A stretch of 61,612 bases of DNA, from contig JBBJNS010000001.1 in NCBI GenBank assembly GCA_037720745.1, positions 1-61,612 on the forward strand, written 5' to 3'. The notes beneath the pieces were generated by a model. That model was not told where the DNA came from and searched no databases. It saw only the letters and a list, made by a program, of their open reading frames with translations. Numbering within the stretch: position 1 is the first letter of the stretch; the number at the start of each line of letters is the position of its first letter. Source of the DNA: Candidatus Limnocylindrales bacterium (GTDB taxonomy: Bacteria > Chloroflexota > Limnocylindria > Limnocylindrales > CSP1-4). The position numbers and the translations under genes are program-made. Below are positions 38,129-48,017 of this stretch, one piece after another.

Positions 38129-38878
38129 CTACATCATCACCAGGCCGCCATCGACGGCCAGTACCTGCCCCGTGATATAGGCGGCTTCGTCGGAAGCCAG
38201 GAAGCAGACGGCGGCGGAGATATCCTCCGGCGTCCCGAAGCGGCCCAGTGGCGTCCGGTCCGTGATCTGTGCCTGGAGCTCCGGCGGGAGATCCTTGGTG
38301 AGCTCGGTGAGCACGAAGCCGGGCGCCACGGCATTGACCGTGATGCCCCGACCGGCGAGCTCGCGGGCGCTCGCCTTGGTCAGGCCGATGAGGCCCGCCT
38401 TCGCCGCGGAGTAGTTGGCCTGACCGGTCTGCCCAGCCTGGCCGGACACGCTGGTGATGTTGATGATGCGCCCGCCGCGTGCCTTGAGCATGGGCCGCGT
38501 GACCGCCTTCAGCGTGTAGAAGGCACCGAAGAGGTTCGTCTCCAGGACCTCCCGCCAGGCTTCCGTGCTCATGCGCATGATCAGGTCGTCGCGCGTGATG
38601 CCCGCGTTGTTGACCAGGATGTCGATCTTGCCGAACTCGCCCGTGGCGGCCTTGATGAGCGCCTCGGCGGCGGCCGGGTCCGTGACGTCGGCCTGCACCG
38701 GCAGTGCGTGCCGGCCGAGGGCTGTGATGGCCGCGGCGACTTCGTCCGCGGCGGCCTGATCACGGCGGAAGCTGAAGCAGACATCGGCGCCCTGTTCGGC
38801 CAGCCGAGTCACGATGGCCCGCCCGATGCCGCGCGAACCGCCCGTCACGACGGCGCTCTTGCCGGATAGGTCGATCAC
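38129..38878 (-). CDS. fabG: 3-oxoacyl-[ACP] reductase
   Basis: 249-aa SDR with motifs VTGGSRGIGRAI, NNAG and YSAAKAGLIG. There is a GTGA overlap with the fabH stop. Confidence 0.9.
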   Translation of the reverse strand: MIDLSGKSAVVTGGSRGIGRAIVTRLAEQGADVCFSFRRDQAAADEVAAAITALGRHALPVQADVTDPAAAEALIKAATGEFGKIDILVNNAGITRDDLIMRMSTEAWREVLETNLFGAFYTLKAVTRPMLKARGGRIINITSVSGQAGQTGQANYSAAKAGLIGLTKASARELAGRGITVNAVAPGFVLTELTKDLPPELQAQITDRTPLGRFGTPEDISAAVCFLASDEAAYITGQVLAVDGGLVMM

Positions 38879-40083
38879 ACTGGCACCTCCCGGCGGGCAT
38901 GCTCAGGCTCGCCGGGCACGACATCATCGAGCGGGACCTGCGGCCCTTCACGGTCCTCCAGCACGGCCGTGAGGCGCGCCGGCATGGGGTCCACGGAGTC
39001 CCAGTCGACCGGCGCGCGGACGGAGGCGACCGGCTCCACGCTCTCCGAACGACGTCCGTTGGCCGGGTCGGCGGTCCATTCGACGGCCGCGGCACCACTG
39101 GTGAAGCCGGCCCCGAAGGCCACGAAGACGATCTTGTCGCCCACCTTCACGCGCCCGAAGTCGACCGCCTCTGCCAGCGCGATGCCCACCGAGGCGGCCG
39201 AGGTGTTGCCGTAGCGGTCGACGTTGACGAACATCTTGTCCATGGGCAGATCCAGCCCCTTGGCCACCGATTCGATGATGCGGATGTTGGCCTGGTGCGG
39301 GATGAAGAGGTCGACCTCGGAGGGATCCCAGCCCGCCCGGCTGATGGCCTTGAGAGCGGAGGTGGCCAGGGTCTTGGTCGCGTAGCGGTAGGTCTCCTTG
39401 CCCTCCATGCGCACGTAGTGCTCGCCGCGTCGCACGGTCTCGTCCGAGGGCGGGCTCTTGGAACCGCCCGAGGGCAGCCAGATCATGTAGGCACCGTCGG
39501 GGTCGGTCGTCATCTCCATACCGGCCAGCCCGCCGCCCTCCTCGTCCGAGGCGGAGACGACCACCGCGCCTGCTCCATCGCCGAAGAGGATGCACGTATT
39601 GCGGTCACTGAAGTCCAGGAAGCGCGTGAGCAGCTCCGCGCCGATGACCAGCACGTGGCGGTACATGCCGCTGCGGATGTAGGCGTCGGCCGTGGCATAG
39701 GCGAAGACGAAGCCGGAGCAGGCGGCCATCACGTCGAAGGCGGCCGCCTTGCTGTTGCCGATGGCCTCTTTGACCAGCGCCGCCGTGGAAGGCATCCAAT
39801 AGTCGGGCGTGAGCGTGCCCACCAGGATAAGGTCGATCTCCTGGGGATCGAGTCCGGCCACGGCGATGGCGCGCTTGCCGGCGATGGCCGCCAGTGTGGC
39901 CGTGGTCTCGTGAGGCGCGGCCACGCGACGCTCGCGGATGCCCGTGCGGGAGCGGATCCAGTCGTCATTCGTGTCGACCAGCTTCTCTAGGTCGGCGTTG
40001 GTCAGGATGCGTTCAGGGGCGTAGTGCCCCCAACCCGTGATGCGAACGCTGCGCGGCACCATCCTCCGTCCCTCCACGCTCAT
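38875..40083 (-). CDS. fabH: 3-oxoacyl-[ACP] synthase III with a C-terminal extension of about 70 aa
   Basis: Catalytic context: AACSGFVFA (Cys), IPHQANIRI (His), GNTSAASV (Asn). At 402 aa it is long for FabH. The extra tail is acidic and proline-rich (..VEPVASVRAPVDWDSVDPMPARL..). Confidence 0.85.
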   Translation of the reverse strand: MSVEGRRMVPRSVRITGWGHYAPERILTNADLEKLVDTNDDWIRSRTGIRERRVAAPHETTATLAAIAGKRAIAVAGLDPQEIDLILVGTLTPDYWMPSTAALVKEAIGNSKAAAFDVMAACSGFVFAYATADAYIRSGMYRHVLVIGAELLTRFLDFSDRNTCILFGDGAGAVVVSASDEEGGGLAGMEMTTDPDGAYMIWLPSGGSKSPPSDETVRRGEHYVRMEGKETYRYATKTLATSALKAISRAGWDPSEVDLFIPHQANIRIIESVAKGLDLPMDKMFVNVDRYGNTSAASVGIALAEAVDFGRVKVGDKIVFVAFGAGFTSGAAAVEWTADPANGRRSESVEPVASVRAPVDWDSVDPMPARLTAVLEDREGPQVPLDDVVPGEPEHARREVPV

Positions 40084-40562
40084 GACGGCTCGACCTCGAT
40101 GAGGGTCTGCTTCTGCTTTACGAGCGCGCCGCTTTCGGCGGCCAGGCGCCGGACCGTGCCACTGACGTCGCTCTTGATCTCATTGAAGAGCTTCATGGCT
40201 TCGATGAGACCGATGACCTGCCCCGCGCTGACGTGGGCTCCTTCCTTGACGTATGGCGCGGCGCCCGGCGAGGGCGAGGTGTAGAAGATGCCCGTGAGCG
40301 GTGCCACCACGGCATGAAAACGGCTCTCCGGCTCGTGCGCGCCGTCCGTCGGCGCGGCGGTGGCTGAGGGCGGTGGCGTGGCCACAGCCTGGCTCACTGG
40401 CGGGGCTGTGGGCCGCAGCGCGGCATGCTTGGCGAGGCGCAGCATGGTGGGACCGGCCTCGACCTCGAGCTCGATGAGATCCGAGCGCTGGAGAAGCGCC
40501 TCGTACCGGTCGATGAGCGCCAGGAGCTCGCCCGCTTCACTCCGCTCGGACGGTTCAGGCAC
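40080..40562 (-). CDS. accB: Biotin carboxyl carrier protein (canonical, biotinylatable)
   Basis: 160 aa. The C-terminal biotinyl domain carries the EAMKLFNEI hairpin. Confidence 0.85.
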   Translation of the reverse strand: MPEPSERSEAGELLALIDRYEALLQRSDLIELEVEAGPTMLRLAKHAALRPTAPPVSQAVATPPPSATAAPTDGAHEPESRFHAVVAPLTGIFYTSPSPGAAPYVKEGAHVSAGQVIGLIEAMKLFNEIKSDVSGTVRRLAAESGALVKQKQTLIEVEPS

Positions 40563-40568
40563 TGCACA

Positions 40569-40595
40569 GCTCAGGCATCGGCCGGCTCAGGCATC
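40569..40595. repeat. 11-bp direct repeat gctcaggcatc x2 (16-bp period); the second copy contains the fabF stop codon
   Basis: 40569-40579 and 40585-40595 are identical. Confidence 0.8.
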
Positions 40596-41846
40596 CCAGC
40601 GCCGCATCACGAGGCACGTGTTCTGGCCACCGAAACCGAAGGCGTTGATGATGGCCACGCGGGCATCGCGGCGCACAGCGGACAGTGGCGTGCAGTCCAG
40701 GTCCCCTACCTGTGCATCCGGATCGGTCAGGTTGAGGGTGGGCGGCACACAGCCCTCGAGCAGTGTCCGCACGGTGACCACGGCGGCGATGGCGCCCGCC
40801 GCGCCCAGCGAGTGGCCGATGGAGCTCTTGGTGGCCGTGATGCTCACCTTCGGTGCTCGCTCACCCAGCAGGGAGCGGATGGCATGGAGCTCGGCCACGT
40901 CGCCTTCTGCGGTGCTCGTGGCGTGGGCGCTGACCACGTCCACCTCGGAAGGGTCGATGCGCGCCTTCTCCAGCGCTCGCCGGCTGGCCCGCAAAGCGCC
41001 CGAACCACCCGGGGCGGGCAGCGTGATATGGCTGGCGTCAGCGGTGGCGCCGTAGCCGCACAACTCGGCCAGGATGGTGGCGCCCCGTCGCTCGGCCTGG
41101 CCCAGCTCCTCCAGGATGACCACCGCGGCACCCTCGGCACAGACGAAGCCATCGCGGCCCTGGTCGAACGGCCGGCTTGCTCCCGCCGGGTCATCGTTGC
41201 GCGTGGACAGCGCGCGCATGGCCGCGAAGCCACCCACCGTGGCTTCGTGGATGGGCGCCTCCGAGCCGCCCGTGATCATCATCTCCGCGTCGCCGCGCCG
41301 GATGGTCTCGAAGGCTTCCCCGATGGCATGGCCCGACGATGCGCAGGCGCTCACGGCGGCGTAGTTGGGCCCCTGCGCTCCGGTGCTGATGGCCACCTGA
41401 CCGGCGGCCATGTTGGCGATGACCATGGGGATGAAGAAGGGGCTCAGGCGCTCAGGTCCGCGCGTCGCCCAGAGCTCGACCTGATCCATGAAGCTGCGCG
41501 TGCCGCCCAGGCCGGAGCCGATGAGCACCCCCGTCGACTCGCGCATCTCGGGCGCCAGCTTTTCGGGCAGGCCAGCCTGCGTCATGGCCTCGCGCGTGGC
41601 CACCAGGGTGAACTGCGTGCAGCGGTCGTTGCGCCGCATCTCCTTGCGATCAAGGACGCCACTGGCGTCGAAGTCGACCACCTCGCCGGCCATCTGGCTC
41701 TGCACCCGGCCGGGGTCGAAAGCCTCGATGCGGCGCACACCGGACTCCCCGGCCACGAGTCGTCGCCAGGTCGTGGACACGTCGCTGCCCAGGGGCGTCA
41801 CGGCACCCAGGCCGGTGATCACCACACGGCGCTGCTCGCTGGTCAT
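40587..41846 (-). CDS. fabF: 3-oxoacyl-[ACP] synthase II
   Basis: 419 aa with motifs ACASSGHAIG, HATSTAEGD and GHSLGAAG. Confidence 0.9.
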   Translation of the reverse strand: MTSEQRRVVITGLGAVTPLGSDVSTTWRRLVAGESGVRRIEAFDPGRVQSQMAGEVVDFDASGVLDRKEMRRNDRCTQFTLVATREAMTQAGLPEKLAPEMRESTGVLIGSGLGGTRSFMDQVELWATRGPERLSPFFIPMVIANMAAGQVAISTGAQGPNYAAVSACASSGHAIGEAFETIRRGDAEMMITGGSEAPIHEATVGGFAAMRALSTRNDDPAGASRPFDQGRDGFVCAEGAAVVILEELGQAERRGATILAELCGYGATADASHITLPAPGGSGALRASRRALEKARIDPSEVDVVSAHATSTAEGDVAELHAIRSLLGERAPKVSITATKSSIGHSLGAAGAIAAVVTVRTLLEGCVPPTLNLTDPDAQVGDLDCTPLSAVRRDARVAIINAFGFGGQNTCLVMRRWDA

Positions 41847-42589
41847 CGGATGAGCCTCCCTGTGCGCACCGTGGCGGCGCGATAGACGTCACCCGGCAAT
41901 CCTCGCGCGGACAGTTCGTCGGCCACCTGCTGCGCGTCGAAGGCGGCTCGGAAGAGTTCCGCCTGCGGTTCGTCGCCTGCCACGGTCAACATCGCCCAGC
42001 CCGCGGTCGGTTCGCCGTCGAAGGCGTAGCCGCACGAGCCGGGGTTGCAGATCAACTTGCGGCCCAGTTCGCGGACCTCCGCCACGTGCGTGTGGCCACA
42101 GACGATGACGCGCGCGTCGGTCCGGGTCACCCGCTCGACGGTCACCGACGGATCGAGGTCCGCCGCCAGGCCGCTGGTCTGACTGCCGGGCGAGGCGTGA
42201 CAGATGAGGACCATGTGCTCGCCCAGCATCACGCGACGCTCGAACGGCAGCCGGCGCAGCCACTCCACCTCGTCGTCGGCCAGCTCGTCGTGGGCCCACT
42301 CCGCGGCAAGTCGCTGGGCCTCGGGCACCTCGTCCAGCCAGGGGAATGCGGCCGCATAGTCGGCGTCGGCCACGGCCACATCCGTGTTGCCCTGGATGAC
42401 CAACACGCCGCCAGCCGCTTCCATCTCACGCAGTCGAGCCACCACGGCCGATGGCTGCGGGCCGTTCATGACCAGGTCTCCGGTGACCGCCACGAGCTGG
42501 GGCTCCTTGCGCTTGATGTCCTTGAGCGCCGCCTCGAGGGCCGCCACGTTGCCGTGGATGTCGCCCAGCACCGCGATGCGATCAGCCAT
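41843..42589 (-). CDS. Calcineurin-like metallophosphoesterase (YfcE/MJ0936-like)
   Basis: 248 aa with motifs VLGDIHGN, TGDLVMNG, GNTD and CGHTH. It overlaps both neighbours (ATGA at 41843-41846 and a 1-nt overlap at 42589). Confidence 0.8.
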   Translation of the reverse strand: MADRIAVLGDIHGNVAALEAALKDIKRKEPQLVAVTGDLVMNGPQPSAVVARLREMEAAGGVLVIQGNTDVAVADADYAAAFPWLDEVPEAQRLAAEWAHDELADDEVEWLRRLPFERRVMLGEHMVLICHASPGSQTSGLAADLDPSVTVERVTRTDARVIVCGHTHVAEVRELGRKLICNPGSCGYAFDGEPTAGWAMLTVAGDEPQAELFRAAFDAQQVADELSARGLPGDVYRAATVRTGRLIR

Positions 42590-43065
42590 CAGTCCAGCGC
42601 CCCTTCGGGTGGGATGACGAAGGAGAGCAGCGCTTCACAGGCGACCTCGCCGTCCACCGTGGCCAGCGCGCGACCCTTGCCGAAGCGACGACCCAGCTTC
42701 TCCATGGTGACCTCCAGCGAGAGCCGATCGCCGGGCTGCACGATGCGCTTGAAGCGGCATCCCTCGATGCCCGCGAAGAGCCCGATGCGATCACCGAAGC
42801 CGGGCTGGCGTGCCACGTACACGGCCATCGTCTGCGCCAGAGCCTCGACCTGGAGCACGCCGGGCATGACAGGCAGACCCGGGAAGTGGCCCTGGAAGAA
42901 CCACTCGGAGGCGGTGACGCCCTTCTCGCCGCGGATGTAGCCGCGTTCAGGGTCGTACTCCATGATCCGATCGACGAGCAGGAACGGCCAGCGATGCGGG
43001 ATCAGGTCCTGGATCGCCCGAGAGCTCAGCAGCGGCCCGGCGGCACTGGCGGTCTGGTCGGTCAT
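42589..43065 (-). CDS. fabZ: 3-hydroxyacyl-[ACP] dehydratase
   Basis: 158 aa with motifs IPHRWPFLLVDRI and GHFPGLPVMPGVL. The SD sequence GAGGAG lies upstream. Confidence 0.9.
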   Translation of the reverse strand: MTDQTASAAGPLLSSRAIQDLIPHRWPFLLVDRIMEYDPERGYIRGEKGVTASEWFFQGHFPGLPVMPGVLQVEALAQTMAVYVARQPGFGDRIGLFAGIEGCRFKRIVQPGDRLSLEVTMEKLGRRFGKGRALATVDGEVACEALLSFVIPPEGALD

Positions 43066-43097
43066 CGGCTCCTCATGATGCTCATGTTCGCGCGTTG

Positions 43098-44474
43098 TCA
43101 GGACTCGGCGCCGGCAGCCGCGGCCAAGAAGGCCGCGCTGCCCACGCGATCGAGCAGGTTCGTCGTGAAGCGGCCCTCCAGGAACGTGGCGCCCTCGATG
43201 AGCGCGCGATGGAAGGGGATGTTCGTCTTGAGTCCGTCGACCACCAGCTCCCCCAGCGCCACACGCCCCCGGTCGATGGCCGTGGCTCGGTCGGGACCCC
43301 AGACGATGAGCTTACCCAGCAGCGAATCGTAGTAGGGCGGGACCTCATAGCCCGCATACAGGTGCGTGTCCATCCTGACGCCCGGGCCGCCGGGCTGCGT
43401 GAAGGCCGTGACGGGTCCCGCCTGAGGCCGGAAGTCGTGCTCCACGTCCTCGGCATTGATGCGGAACTCGATGGCGTGCCCGCGCAGCGAGACGTCCGCC
43501 TGCGAATACCCCAGCGGCTCGCCCGCCGCGATGCGGATCTGCTCCACCACCAGGTCGATGCCCGAGAGCATCTCGGTCACGGGATGCTCCACCTGGATGC
43601 GACAGTTGATCTCGATGAAGTAGGCATCGCCCTTGGCATCGACCAGGAACTCCAGGGTGCCCACGTTCTCGTAGCCTGCCGCCACCACCGCCCGCACGGC
43701 ATCCTCGGCCAGCGCCGCACGCTGCGCTGCGTCGAGGGCGGGCGTGGGCGCCTCCTCCACGACCTTCTGATGGCGCCGCTGGACGGAGCAGTCCCGCTCA
43801 CCGACGTGGACGCCGTTGCCGTAGCGGTCGACGATGACCTGGATCTCCACGTGGCGGTTATCGTCCAGCCACTTCTCCAGGTAGAGCGAATCGTCACCGA
43901 AGGCCGCCCGCGCCTCTGAGCGGCAGATGGTCAGGGCCTGCTGGAGTTCCCGCGTGGAGCGGACCAGGCGCATGCCCCGGCCGCCGCCGCCGGCGGAGGG
44001 CTTGATGAGCACGGGATAGCCGATCCGCTCCGCCTCGGCCAGGGCGTGATCATCGTCGCGCAGCATGCCGTCCGAGCCGGGGATGGTGGGCAGGCCCTGG
44101 CGACCCAGCAACTGACGCGTGCCGGCCTTGGAGGCGAAGCGCTCCAGGACCTCGGGCGGCGGCCCGATGAAGGTCAGGCCGTGTGCCCGGGTCATCTCCG
44201 CGAAGGTGTCGTCCTCGGACAGGAAGCCGTAGCCCGGGTGCACAGCGTCGCAACCTGTGACCACGGCGGCCGACAGGATGGAGGCCACGGAGAGGTAACT
44301 GCGTCGCGCCTCGGCGGGTCCCACGCAGATGGCTTCGTCCGCCATCTGGACGGCGCGAGAGTCGCGATCAGCCTCGCTGTAAGCGACCACGGCGCTGATG
44401 CCCATGCGTCGGCAGGCGCGCAGGATGCGCAGGGCGATCTCGCCGCGGTTGGCGATCAGCACGCGGCTGAACAT
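43098..44474 (-). CDS. accC: Biotin carboxylase subunit of acetyl-CoA carboxylase
   Basis: 458 aa with an ATP-grasp fold. It reads MFSRVLIANRGEIALRILRACR.., ..EMNxR-type INCRIQVEHPVTE. Confidence 0.9.
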   Translation of the reverse strand: MFSRVLIANRGEIALRILRACRRMGISAVVAYSEADRDSRAVQMADEAICVGPAEARRSYLSVASILSAAVVTGCDAVHPGYGFLSEDDTFAEMTRAHGLTFIGPPPEVLERFASKAGTRQLLGRQGLPTIPGSDGMLRDDDHALAEAERIGYPVLIKPSAGGGGRGMRLVRSTRELQQALTICRSEARAAFGDDSLYLEKWLDDNRHVEIQVIVDRYGNGVHVGERDCSVQRRHQKVVEEAPTPALDAAQRAALAEDAVRAVVAAGYENVGTLEFLVDAKGDAYFIEINCRIQVEHPVTEMLSGIDLVVEQIRIAAGEPLGYSQADVSLRGHAIEFRINAEDVEHDFRPQAGPVTAFTQPGGPGVRMDTHLYAGYEVPPYYDSLLGKLIVWGPDRATAIDRGRVALGELVVDGLKTNIPFHRALIEGATFLEGRFTTNLLDRVGSAAFLAAAAGAES

Positions 44475-44980
44475 CAGGCCTGCTCCGGCCGGCTGGGCGA
44501 ACCATCGACGCGCGCGAGTTCCTGGCCGTATTCCACGGCCTCGCCGGCCTCCACCACGATCCGGCCCAGCATCCCATCAGACGTGGCCACCACGTCGTGG
44601 CGGATGCCCAGCACATCGACATGGCCCAGCATATCGCCAGCGCGGACGCTGCGCCCCACATCGAGTCCCTCCCCCGGCTGGAAGTAGCCCACGGCGGGCG
44701 ACGTGACCATCGATCGGTCGGCGTGACCACCGTCCCCCTCGGCACGGCGCTCCTTCTCCGCGGCGCGGCCGTCGCGCGCTTCGCGGGGACCGACCGTGCT
44801 CGCCACGCCGTCGGCTCGACGGAGACGGACGCGCCAGTCCCCATGCCGGACCTCCAGCTCGCCCAGGCCGCCGCCGCTGAAGCGGGCGATGAGGGCGGGC
44901 AGCACGTCGTCCGCGACGCGCCTCAGCTCGCGCTGCGCGGCCTCGCCGTCCAGTGGCGCCGGCGGGGACTCGTGGGGCAC
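44474..44980 (-). CDS. BCCP-like biotinyl-domain protein lacking the biotinylated lysine (BADC-like)
   Basis: 168 aa. MVTSPAVGYFQPGEGLDVGRSVRAGDMLGHVDVLGIRHDVVATSDGMLGRIVVEAGEAVEYGQELARVD aligns to the BCCP C-terminal domain. The AMKM hairpin is replaced by VLGI, with K changed to G. The gene occupies the classical accB position immediately 5' of accC (1-nt overlap). Confidence 0.7.
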   Translation of the reverse strand: MPHESPPAPLDGEAAQRELRRVADDVLPALIARFSGGGLGELEVRHGDWRVRLRRADGVASTVGPREARDGRAAEKERRAEGDGGHADRSMVTSPAVGYFQPGEGLDVGRSVRAGDMLGHVDVLGIRHDVVATSDGMLGRIVVEAGEAVEYGQELARVDGSPSRPEQA

Positions 44981-45993
44981 TACACGTCCTCCCGCAAGGG
45001 CGGCTCGTCCTGATCATCAGCGGCTTCGGGACGGAGCGGACCCTGCTCCGCGCCCAGGATGCCGCGGCTTGAGCCGAGCCGCATGCGCAGGCGGTCGGCC
45101 AGGCTCTGTCGCTCGGGCCGCGGCGTCACCACCGAGCCGCTGTCGGCGAAGGCGCCCATCCGCCGGAAGCGGTCGTAGCGCTCCTGAAGCAGCTCGTCCA
45201 GGTCGCGCGGCATCAGCCTGTCGAGCTGCGTCACGATCTGGGCGCCCAGCCGACGGGCGGTCTCCTCGGGCGCGGCGTGGGCGCCCTCTGTCGGTTCGCC
45301 GACCACGACATCGATGACACCCAGTGCCTGTTGTTCGCCGGCCGTCAGTCGCATGGCGACGGCCGCCTGCTGGGCCGCCTCGGGCGCGCGCCACAGGATG
45401 GAAGCGCAGCCTTCCGGGGAGATGACCGAATAGATGGCGTTCTCCAGTGCGATGACCACGTCACCTACGGCGATGGCCAGCGCGCCGCCGGAGCCGCCCT
45501 CCCCGGTGATGACACAGACGATGGGCGTGCGCAGACCGGCCATCACGCCGATGGAGCGGGCGATGGCCTCGGCCACACCGCGCTCCTCCGATGCCGCGCC
45601 AGGATAGGCACCGGGTGTATCGATCAGGGTCACCACGGGCAGGCCCAGGCGTTCGGCCAGCTGGAAGAGCCGCATCGCCTTGCGGTACCCCTCGGCATGG
45701 GGCATGCCGAAGTTGCGCCTGACGTTCTCCTCGACCTCCGAGCCTTTCTGCTGGCCGACGAAGACGACGCGGTGCTCACCGATGCGGCAGAAACCACCGA
45801 CCAGCGCCGGATCGTCCCCGAAGAGCCGGTCGCCGTGTAGCTCGATGACGTCGGTGGCCATCATGCCCACCAGCTCCAGCGTGTGCGGCCGCTTGACATC
45901 GCGTGCCTGCTGGACCCGCGCCCAGACCGCTTCGCGCAGCGCCTCATGGTCCACCCGATGAGGCTGGACGAGTCCGCCCTCGGCGGGCGGCAT
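44980..45993 (-). CDS. accA: Acetyl-CoA carboxylase carboxyltransferase alpha subunit
   Basis: Motifs are GGFCRIGEHRVVFVGQQKG, NFGMPHAEGYRKAMRL and LIDTPGAYPG. ATG 45993 is preferred because it is preceded by GAGG. The track ORF extends to 46086 and overlaps accD. Confidence 0.85.
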   Translation of the reverse strand: MPPAEGGLVQPHRVDHEALREAVWARVQQARDVKRPHTLELVGMMATDVIELHGDRLFGDDPALVGGFCRIGEHRVVFVGQQKGSEVEENVRRNFGMPHAEGYRKAMRLFQLAERLGLPVVTLIDTPGAYPGAASEERGVAEAIARSIGVMAGLRTPIVCVITGEGGSGGALAIAVGDVVIALENAIYSVISPEGCASILWRAPEAAQQAAVAMRLTAGEQQALGVIDVVVGEPTEGAHAAPEETARRLGAQIVTQLDRLMPRDLDELLQERYDRFRRMGAFADSGSVVTPRPERQSLADRLRMRLGSSRGILGAEQGPLRPEAADDQDEPPLREDV

Positions 45994-46003
45994 GTGCGTG
46001 GCC

Positions 46004-46959
<956 letters not shown>

Positions 46960-46960
<1 letters not shown>

Positions 46961-47403
46961 CAGACAGCGCGCCCACCGGTCAGGCCGGACGGGGCGGCCG
47001 CTCCCCTGCCCCGGCGCCAGGCCAGCAGCGCGGCGCCCGCGATGGACACTCCCGAGGCGATGGCACCACCCACCAGCAGGCTGCGCGCACGCCGGTCATT
47101 CGAGTCGACGCTCGCGTCCGACAGCGGAGCCGCGCCGGGGAAGGCCACCAGCTCGCCGGCCGACAGGGTCGCACCGTAGCCGGCAGCCTCCGATCGCAGC
47201 CGGCCCGCCAGTCGTTCCTCGAAGTGGAAGGAGGGTCGGAAGCGGGGTAGCACTCGGTCGAGCAGATCGGCCGTCAGGCGGAGGGAGGGCGCCAACTCGG
47301 TCGAGGACACCGGCGTGAGCTCGGTCGGTCGTGACCCGGCACGCCTGGCCAGCAGGCGCTCGAGATAGATATCCGTAGCCATCGCTTGCCGCTCGCCCAT
47401 CAC
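46960..47403 (-). CDS. Putative anti-sigma factor (single C-terminal TM segment, very short extracytoplasmic tail)
   Basis: 147 aa. Its start overlaps the stop of the ECF sigma gene (ATGA at 47400-47403). The TM segment is LLVGGAIASGVSIAGAALLAW. There is no HxxxCxxC zinc motif. The assignment rests on position and topology only. Confidence 0.5.
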
Positions 47404-48017
47404 GAGGATCGCGAAGGCCGCGCCGGCCGCGATCCATCCATCTGCTCGGCCACGCTGTGCAGGGCGCGGTGCACCAGCACGCGGACGGCACCCTCCGAGC
47501 GGCCCATGACCTGGCCGATCTCGCGCGTGCTCAACTCCTCCACGAAACGCAGCGTGAGTGCGCGCCGTCGGTCCGCCGGCAGCCGCTCGATGGCGGTCCA
47601 GGCGCGCGCCACCAGGTCTCTGGTGACGACTTCCTGAGCAGGATCGTCGGTGGCGGCGATGGCCAGTGCATCGTCCAGCGGCTCGGTCGGGTGACGTCGC
47701 GCCCGGCGCCGCTCGTTGGAGAGGGCGTTGCGAGCGATGCGAAAGAGCCAGACGCGGAACGTGGAGGCATCACCGTCGCCTTGCTCCCGGAAGCGGGGCA
47801 GTCCGTGCAGTGCCCGGAGGAAGACCTGCTCGGTCAGATCCTCGGCAGCGTGCGGGTCACGGGTCTCGTAGAGGGCGAAGCTATACACCTGGGCCACGTA
47901 CTTGCGATAGAGCGCGTCGAATGCGCCATGGTCACGACGAGCGGCTTCCACGGCAGGACGGTCCGCGTCATAGGGGATCGGGCGTTGGGGCGCCTCTTCC
48001 CTCCCTCTACCGAACAC
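47400..48017 (-). CDS. ECF-type RNA polymerase sigma factor
   Basis: 205 aa. Region 2 reads FDALYRKYVAQVYSFA..DLTQEVFLRA. Region 4 reads LPADRRRALTLRFVEELSTREIGQVMGRSEGAVRVLVHRAL. Confidence 0.85.
   Translation of the reverse strand: MFGRGREEAPQRPIPYDADRPAVEAARRDHGAFDALYRKYVAQVYSFALYETRDPHAAEDLTEQVFLRALHGLPRFREQGDGDASTFRVWLFRIARNALSNERRRARRHPTEPLDDALAIAATDDPAQEVVTRDLVARAWTAIERLPADRRRALTLRFVEELSTREIGQVMGRSEGAVRVLVHRALHSVAEQMDGSRPARPSRSS

Follow-up and report, generated by a model that had tools for sequence, protein, structure and literature searches.

Heteromeric acetyl-CoA carboxylase (ACC) carries out the committed step of bacterial fatty-acid synthesis, and it is a target for antibiotics as well as a model of the plastid enzyme. 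The closest described counterparts of the protein analyzed here are the BADC proteins of plants, which bind biotin carboxylase (BC) as well as biotin carboxyl carrier protein (BCCP), are devoid of an AMKL motif and do not become biotinylated (PMC11926652; PMC13585458). They have been termed 'unique to the plant htACCase' and are treated as plant-only proteins (PMC11926652). BADC is described as blocking the access of BCCP to BC (PMC13585458; PMC7712654), and in an alternative mode it is a 'glue' or 'cap' that aids BC–BCCP assembly (PMC11926652, PMC12873504), the 'glue' function being proposed for BADC2/3; whether these proteins are inhibitors or assembly factors is still debated. The window analyzed in this work is a 61,612-nucleotide stretch of DNA from Candidatus Limnocylindrales bacterium (Chloroflexota; assembly GCA_037720745.1, contig JBBJNS010000001.1), which contains an array of acc and fab genes with two genes for BCCP-like proteins. 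One of them, located between fabF and fabH, encodes a canonical carrier. The other, located between accA and accC, encodes a paralogue with glycine in place of the biotin-accepting lysine, hereafter called the lysine-less paralogue (X in gene orders). As described below, this gene is maintained by selection in many related genomes, and its product is probably a non-catalytic subunit of ACC.

Glycine at the tip of the biotinyl hairpin

The lysine-less paralogue retains the predicted architecture of a BCCP, with an N-terminal α/β/β module, a flexible linker and a biotinyl-domain fold. Its match to the Pfam Biotin_lipoyl model (PF00364) passed the gathering threshold (24.0 bits, cut-off 22.1, E = 3.5e-5) and spanned residues 107–157 on model positions 22–72. 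With the NCBIfam BCCP model TIGR00531 it scored 41.2 bits over residues 29–158, missing the equivalog cut-off of 115.2. The canonical BCCP of the window scored 102.8 bits with TIGR00531, which is also under this cut-off, and 54.6 bits with Biotin_lipoyl.

The position of the glycine was the same in all four checks of the hairpin register. In a MAFFT alignment with E. coli AccB and the carrier of the window, VDVLGI was placed under VEAMKM and IEAMKL, respectively. This was in agreement with hhalign, in which a 36-member family profile was compared with nine canonical carriers from related Chloroflexota and Limnocylindria loci (98.2% probability, E = 2.8e-14) and hVDVLGV was paired with LIEAMKL. 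On the Biotin_lipoyl hidden Markov model (HMM), G125 of the paralogue (codon ggc, 44606–44608) and K124 of the carrier both fall near position 40, as given by the arithmetic offset from the match ends. In the AlphaFold2 (AF2) model, L124 and G125 form the turn between strands 117–123 and 126–131. The model has a mean predicted local distance difference test (pLDDT) score of 82, exceeding 95 over the C-terminal domain, and its top Foldseek match in the PDB was 1BDO, the biotinyl domain of E. coli BCCP (template modelling score of 0.83 on the target, root-mean-square deviation of 1.7 Å, 76 columns). As judged from the alignments and the model, Gly125 occupies the position of the biotinyl-lysine. 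A preliminary description of this DNA, made from the sequence alone, had read the hairpin as VDVLGI with Gly for the target Lys and had proposed alignment to Biotin_lipoyl HMMs, a lysine at the tip being the outcome that would speak against it; the register was upheld and no realignment brought a lysine to the tip. It had also placed the only lysine of the protein far from the hairpin. This residue is K76, which lies in a linker modelled with low confidence (average pLDDT of 43–67 per ten-residue block, and below 50 at residues 59–71 and 80–82).

A second difference concerns the BCCP thumb, which is shorter by six residues in the paralogue (gaps of 2 + 4 residues in hhalign and 4 + 2 in MAFFT). 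The stretch that is lost corresponds to TPSPDAKAF in E. coli AccB and TSPSPGAAPY in the carrier of the window. With glycine at the tip and a shortened thumb, the paralogue could not receive biotin, and without the hairpin lysine and a full-length thumb it could not shuttle carboxybiotin. The same glycine stands where a lipoyl-lysine would be sought, and none was found; in a scan of the paralogue against model libraries, all matches to E2 (lipoyl-carrier) models were far below cut-offs and no GcvH model was matched. Going by its sequence, then, the protein cannot act as a carrier of biotin or lipoate. The N-terminal module in the AF2 model comprises a helix followed by a hairpin of two strands (residues 41–46 and 49–54).

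The canonical BCCP has the features that are missing in the paralogue. Its hairpin reads LIEAMKLFNEI, with K124 encoded at 40191–40193, and the thumb is present, so the canonical EAMKLFNEI assigned earlier to the gene between fabF and fabH is correct. The source genome is a metagenome-assembled genome (MAG) of 2.22 Mb in 223 contigs, 90.9% complete and with 0.33% contamination. A third, weak BCCP hit in this genome (C99:151–336, E = 7e-4) was rejected as a chance match, since its translation is not BCCP-like and matched no Pfam model.

Conservation, selection and distribution

A search of a 5.8-billion-protein collection gave 2462 matches, and the best 120 all contained (V/I)-(D/E)-(V/M)-L-G. 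Homologues P0001–P0017, which are 99–61% identical to the paralogue, all start with MP(H/D)E...SPP, as it does. In a profile search of a 1.84-billion representative library, 149 clusters at 50% identity were found at E <= 1e-30. AMK was absent from all 257 collected family members, and Gly stood at the tip in every one of them whose hairpin is present, in the variants VDVLG, IDVLG, VEVLG, VDMLG, VEMLG, VNVLG, VDCLG and VDLLG. Among the 231 members whose hairpin matched the motif pattern, 83 (36%) were entirely free of lysine, which is in line with the earlier suggestion that the paralogue could be a non-biotinylatable protein. Many family members are nevertheless named 'biotin carboxyl carrier protein' in their source annotations; many entries under the name "acetyl-CoA carboxylase biotin carboxyl carrier protein" would thus be unable to carry biotin, and such annotations should be read with caution. 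In 36 aligned members, the invariant residues included L39, E41, E43, W49, R52 and R54 of the N-terminal hairpin and P95, V97, G98, D116, G119, G125, V130, G136, E150 and G152 of the domain.

Purifying selection acts on the gene for the lysine-less paralogue as strongly as it does on the true carrier. Nei–Gojobori estimates of ω (the ratio of non-synonymous to synonymous substitution rates, dN/dS) were made for 29 genomes that hold both genes, and only the closest, unsaturated pairs were used. For the lysine-less gene and the carrier, respectively, ω was 0.139 and 0.133 (pair L036/L055), 0.156 and 0.141 (L013/L016), 0.148 and 0.189 (L024/L040), 0.149 and 0.176 (L040/L044), and 0.203 and 0.140 (L037/L042). 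Medians over all 406 genome pairs (0.60 versus 0.49) were discarded as not meaningful because, at this G+C content, synonymous sites approach saturation. Conserved columns had a mean amino-acid identity of 0.47 in the lysine-less gene, compared with 0.54 in the carrier.

A scan of species-representative genomes gave 54 related loci, nearly all of them in MAGs that bear the label Chloroflexota, Candidatus Limnocylindria or Limnocylindrales; the labels of two others are Methylomirabilota and Solirubrobacterales. About 50 species genomes carry the same cluster. Where the contig is long enough, its order, determined from blastp matches to the proteins of the window, is birA-sigma-(147-aa ORF)-accD-accA-X-accC-fabZ-(phosphoesterase)-fabF-BCCP-fabH-fabG (ORF, open reading frame). 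The tip of X is Gly in all these loci. A canonical carrier is found alongside it in 39 of the ∼50, and in most of the remaining loci the contig ends before the carrier position or is frameshifted there; the fabF-linked BCCP reads IEAMKLFN in all 39 related loci with a complete carrier (IEAMKLYN in one). For 24 of the 28 loci that are of the same type as the window, the distance between the stop codon of X and the start of accC is −8 to +3 nt. In a second type (family f3; L098, L024, L027, L036–L045, L047, L052 and L055), a gap of ∼960 nt separates X from accC. The only f3 locus that was read (L098, 4456–5421) has a 321-aa fabD filling the gap, its GTG overlapping the stop of X.

In a phylum survey of 400 Chloroflexota genomes, the profile of the lysine-less family scored above 100 bits in every genome from three families of the class to which the window belongs (23 of 23, 4 of 4 and 16 of 16). 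A fourth family has a more divergent form, VQSLG, likewise directly after accA. The true carrier had been suspected to be missing from the small genomes of family f2 (1.1–1.4 Mb), based on a single profile match; this was refuted by a canonical Biotin_lipoyl gene in the same cluster, 4.5 kb downstream of X. In several relatives (L014, 4850–6982; L030, 1627–3708; L097, 4466–6502) accD and accA appear to lie in one frame of ∼680–710 aa with X directly following, and these frames possibly encode a fused carboxyltransferase (CT).

Outside the class, 48 genomes from further families of Chloroflexota (40 + 8) were inspected for their best profile match, which was usually lysine-less. The tip residue is G in families f21, f26 and f33; N in f24, f37 and f46; N or M in f32; N or R in f9; Q or E in f7; A or N in f28; N or Q in f17; R in f40 and f76; and S in f81. 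K is kept in f5, f22, f50, f64 and f66, that is, in only 5 of the 19 families sampled. These genes sit in a pepP-efp-X-xseA slot, after an M24 peptidase gene (L088, L093, L094, L096, L111–L150). Linkage of efp and accB is an old position of accB, found, for example, in Bacillus and cyanobacteria. Biotin carboxylase was present in all five searched Chloroflexota genomes with a lysine-less efp-slot gene (free-standing in four), and four of the five have a second, small K-bearing BCCP with the hairpin LIEAMK(V/S)FNE(I/V), G064 having the variant IETMKLFN. Where the efp-slot gene keeps its lysine, it scores 112–168 bits with TIGR00531 and is the only full-length BCCP in 4 of 5 genomes. One such Lys-keeping genome has a second full-length BCCP (L176, G303:C2:1229815–1230300) with an IEVMKLMH hairpin and 114 bits with TIGR00531.

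In the source genome of the window, xseA comes immediately after efp, and no BCCP-like gene intervenes (L193, 2772–4857, contig C76). The empty slot is consistent with relocation of the gene to the acc operon, although relocation may also have gone in the opposite direction. The M24 peptidase gene and efp are separated in this genome by two ORFs of 156 and 134 aa, neither of which matched a Pfam model. Gly-tipped BCCP-like genes are also found just upstream of accC in two Armatimonadota MAGs, where the hairpins read EILALGI and VISVFGI (L070, 6803–7213; L071, 6812–7225), and the same two genomes have canonical LIEAMKVFNE carriers elsewhere (L153, L162). The preliminary description had proposed a survey of lysine-less BCCPs beside accC; their range covers the ∼50 species genomes of Limnocylindria/Chloroflexota and these two Armatimonadota. 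A canonical carrier was present in every locus or genome with a lysine-less gene that is complete enough to check. An uncultured bacterium of 7.2 Mb has, upstream of accC, a BCCP-like gene with the hairpin IEAMHL, in which His stands for Lys and the motif is otherwise intact (L067, 6836–7423); this may reflect either a recent loss or an error in the assembly.

In a tree of 88 BCCP-like proteins (all columns, bootstrap), one clade (98/92) contains the EAMK(V/L)FNE-type carriers found in Limnocylindria, in other Chloroflexota and in Armatimonadota. All 49 lysine-less rows lie on one side of a single branch (87/88), with one change in 92% of bootstrap trees, and their nearest neighbours are the K-bearing BCCPs of the efp slot. 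When the seven hairpin columns were left out, four changes were needed, and the approximately unbiased (AU) test of one clade gave p = 0.23. The grouping on one branch thus draws on the hairpin columns; with four changes required when these are left out, and the AU test neither rejecting one clade nor showing it, we do not claim a single ancient loss of the lysine. The placement of the two BCCP genes of the window in old, separate paralogue lineages, as opposed to recent duplicates, is robust in these trees. The lysine-less lineage is spread across the phylum Chloroflexota and is not confined to this locus.

Operon context and proposed role

The whole acc/fab array is on the minus strand and is transcribed from birA towards fabG (Table 1). 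At the upstream junction of the lysine-less gene, base 44980 is common to the accA TAG and the GTG start (...GTG TAG TG CCC...), and GGGAGG is located 8 nt upstream of the GTG. At the downstream junction, base 44474 is common to the TGA of the gene and the ATG of accC (...GCC TGA TG TTC...). The 1-nt overlaps on both sides, noted previously, were read directly, and together with the spacing in the related loci they agree with the proposal that the gene is built into the acc operon. Judging from these stop/start overlaps, a single message encodes the paralogue together with AccD, AccA and AccC.

Table 1. Features of the acc/fab array in the window, listed in the direction of transcription
Feature	Position	Strand	Evidence or remark
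birA, biotin protein ligase, 274 aa	48056-48880	(-)	Pfam BPL_LplA_LipB + BPL_C
Sigma-like gene (putative label)	47400-48017	(-)	Between birA and accD
147-aa ORF	46960-47403	(-)	No Pfam match; directly upstream of accD
accD, carboxyltransferase beta with zinc ribbon	46004-46960	(-)	Pfam Carboxyl_trans + Zn_ribbon_ACC
accA, carboxyltransferase alpha	44980-46086	(-)	Pfam ACCA, residue 54 onwards, 368 bits
Lysine-less BCCP paralogue, 168 aa, GTG start	44474-44980	(-)	ORF; Pfam, TIGR00531, AF2
Paralogue: N-terminal helix (12-37) and beta-hairpin (41-54), ...LGELEVRHGDWRVRLRR	44819-44947	(-)	DSSP on AF2 model, pLDDT 81-88
Paralogue: predicted biotinyl-domain-like barrel-sandwich fold, residues 89-159	44504-44716	(-)	AF2 pLDDT >95; Foldseek 1BDO
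Paralogue: hairpin V121-D-V-L-G125-I126 replacing (V/I)-E-A-M-K-(M/L)	44603-44620	(-)	Sequence, alignments, model turn
accC, biotin carboxylase, 458 aa	43098-44474	(-)	Pfam CPSase_L_D2, Biotin_carb_N, Biotin_carb_C
fabZ	42589-43065	(-)	Name read from translation
Calcineurin-like metallophosphoesterase	41843-42589	(-)	Pfam Metallophos_2, 88 bits
fabF	40587-41846	(-)	Name read from translation
Canonical BCCP (AccB), 160 aa	40080-40562	(-)	Between fabF and fabH
fabH	38875-40083	(-)	Name read from translation
fabG	38129-38878	(-)	Name read from translation

The start of accA is uncertain, as its longest ORF runs into accD. The ligase domain and BPL_C are the only Pfam domains matched by birA, which is at the head of the cluster in the related loci too. 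The sigma-like gene has matches at the same position in most related loci, and the 147-aa ORF in only about one third of them. The metallophosphoesterase gene, chained between fabZ and fabF, is kept in class families f1 and f2 and is absent from f3. FabH has 402 aa, and in our reading of the translation its KAS III-like part ends before a C-terminal tail of ∼70 residues (…ANGRRSESVEPV…EHARREVPV). The array in the window contains no fabD, acpP or fabI.

In the reading that we favour and consider probable, the lysine-less paralogue is a non-catalytic subunit of ACC, and we weight a role in assembly or in setting stoichiometry about twice as heavily as that of a competitive inhibitor. Its N-terminal α/β/β module would join the same N-terminal oligomer as the corresponding module of BCCP, and the dummy biotinyl domain would take the docking sites of BCCP on BC, and possibly on CT. 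The protein would be made at a constant ratio to the catalytic subunits, and its role in assembly or stoichiometry would be constitutive, as for the 'glue' proposed for BADC2/3. It is the fixed-ratio co-translation with AccA and AccC that makes a constitutive structural role preferable to a switchable inhibitor.

Several observations weigh against this assignment. A decoy that is made in a fixed ratio with its own target has no obvious regulatory value, so the mode of action is a guess. The conservation of the C-terminal domain falls largely on Gly and on hydrophobic fold positions, and a docking surface is therefore not proved by conservation alone. Outside Limnocylindria the gene is located beside efp and xseA, away from the acc genes, which leaves room for an ACC-independent role of the lineage.

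The alternative that survives best, which we nonetheless judge unlikely, is a competitive negative regulator in line with the original BADC model. With its dummy domain and N-terminal module, the paralogue would replace BCCP on BC and reduce the flux towards malonyl-CoA, possibly in response to pH, ions or a ligand, and this would differ from the favoured reading only in the sign of the effect. A carrier architecture that has no acceptor suits such a function, as does the blocking of BCCP access to BC described for plant BADC (PMC13585458; PMC7712654). However, translational coupling to accA and accC fixes the ratio of the regulator to the enzyme it would inhibit, and no sensor feature is visible in the protein.

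The efp slot gives some weight to a different possibility, in which the barrel-sandwich domain is reused by a partner of a non-ACC complex and the acc position in Limnocylindria is secondary, since the related lysine-less genes of other Chloroflexota lie between efp and xseA, away from accC. However, this slot is itself an old accB position, the Lys-keeping genes found in it score 112–168 bits with TIGR00531 and are the only full-length BCCP in four of five genomes, and in Limnocylindria, as in the two Armatimonadota genomes, acc genes and the lysine-less gene form one chain, so this explanation seems quite improbable. James and Cronan reportedly found in 2004 that the N-terminal part of E. 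coli AccB autoregulates accBC. The lysine-less paralogue might likewise regulate gene expression and not be an enzyme subunit, autoregulation having been split off to a carrier-dead copy. The gene does occupy the accB slot, and the N-terminal module, with its RVRLRR motif and the invariant residues listed above, is the most strongly conserved part of the protein. However, the biotinyl-like domain, which such a role would not need, is intact and under selection, and Pfam and NCBIfam scans of the paralogue found no nucleic-acid-binding domain; we give this explanation very little credence. A decaying accB relic, suggested by a score of 41 versus 115 bits, far under the BCCP family cut-off, or a carrier modified at another residue is hardly credible and was rejected, because ω (0.14–0.20) equals that of the live carrier, the frames are intact in ∼50 species (a few frameshifted assemblies aside) and in the 149 clusters, the hairpin is invariant and 36% of the members have no lysine at all.

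Comparison with known systems

The lysine-less paralogue can be compared with bacterial AccB/BCCP (E. coli AccB; 1BDO, 4HR7; TIGR00531), with which it has in common the length class, the three-part architecture and the position next to accC. It differs in the change of Lys to Gly and of EAM to DVL, in the thumb and in missing the family cut-off. Of the features by which an AccB is recognized, fold and architecture and accC adjacency are thus present, whereas the biotinyl-lysine, the equivalog score and the thumb are not. The first 30 residues of E. coli BCCP are predicted to have an α/β/β layout and have been modelled as an oligomeric β-barrel at the centre of ACC tubes (PMC11160672), and the same layout is predicted for the N-terminus of the paralogue. 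In the same phylum, Chloroflexus aurantiacus has a fused BC–BCCP, BC1, in which the β-hairpin barrel of BCCP tetramerizes the protein by linking BC dimers (PMC11077971). A β-barrel contact of this kind may, by analogy, be formed by the N-terminal hairpin of the paralogue. Unlike the paralogue, BC1 is a fusion, is catalytic and has a working EAMKM motif (K553). The Chloroflexus ACC paper makes no mention of a lysine-less BCCP (PMC11077971), and no description of one in a bacterial acc operon was found in full-text searches of the literature, whose coverage did not extend to the original BADC papers. The lysine-less genes of the efp slot and of Armatimonadota group with the paralogue in trees and have the same architecture. 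Its Gly tip is common to families f21, f26 and f33 and to Armatimonadota, while the tip is N, R, Q, E, A, S or M in others, and the efp-slot genes differ from it in genomic context.

When the paralogue is compared with the BADC proteins of plants and green algae (Arabidopsis BADC1–3; Chlamydomonas Cre01.g037850), it is apparent that both have a biotinyl-domain fold without the biotinyl-lysine and coexist with a true BCCP and a four-subunit ACC. In contrast to plant BADC, the paralogue is bacterial, lies inside the acc operon and is translationally coupled. We take the BCCP-like proteins of Brassica to be equivalent to BADC. They are orthologues of Arabidopsis BCCPL-2 according to PMC9578262, and their hairpin reads CYIEQLGGQFPIE, compared with CIIEAMKLMNEIE in the plant carrier (PMC9578262), so that M has become L and K has become G. 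VDVLG of the paralogue shows this pair of replacements as well. By hand count, a 23-aa stretch of the plant BCCP-like protein (PMC9578262) is identical to the paralogue at 4 of 23 positions and to the carrier of the window at 8 of 23. Since the plant stretch is closer to canonical carriers, these 23 residues weakly suggest that the L-G change arose by convergence and not by shared descent.

A wider picture, which we offer as a doubtful one, is that heteromeric ACC in much of Terrabacteria (Chloroflexota, Armatimonadota) has a lysine-less BCCP paralogue as an old and obligatory fifth subunit, which co-assembles with BCCP through the N-terminal hairpin barrel, and that BADC either descended from such a lineage or arrived independently at the same M-to-L and K-to-G change. 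If this were true, 'dummy carriers' would be a general design principle of multi-subunit ACC and not a plant invention. A bacterial counterpart in the acc operon would provide a simple system, one that E. coli could express, in which to study the effect of a dummy carrier on BC–BCCP–CT assembly, and a route to distinguish convergence from inheritance for the plant proteins.

In summary, the suggestion in the preliminary description that this is a bacterial analogue of BADC holds for the hallmarks that can be read from sequence, and for these only: the protein has no acceptor lysine, is maintained, is chained into the operon and is accompanied by a true carrier. By these features the lysine-less paralogue is an analogue of BADC, and we do not file it as a member of the BADC family.

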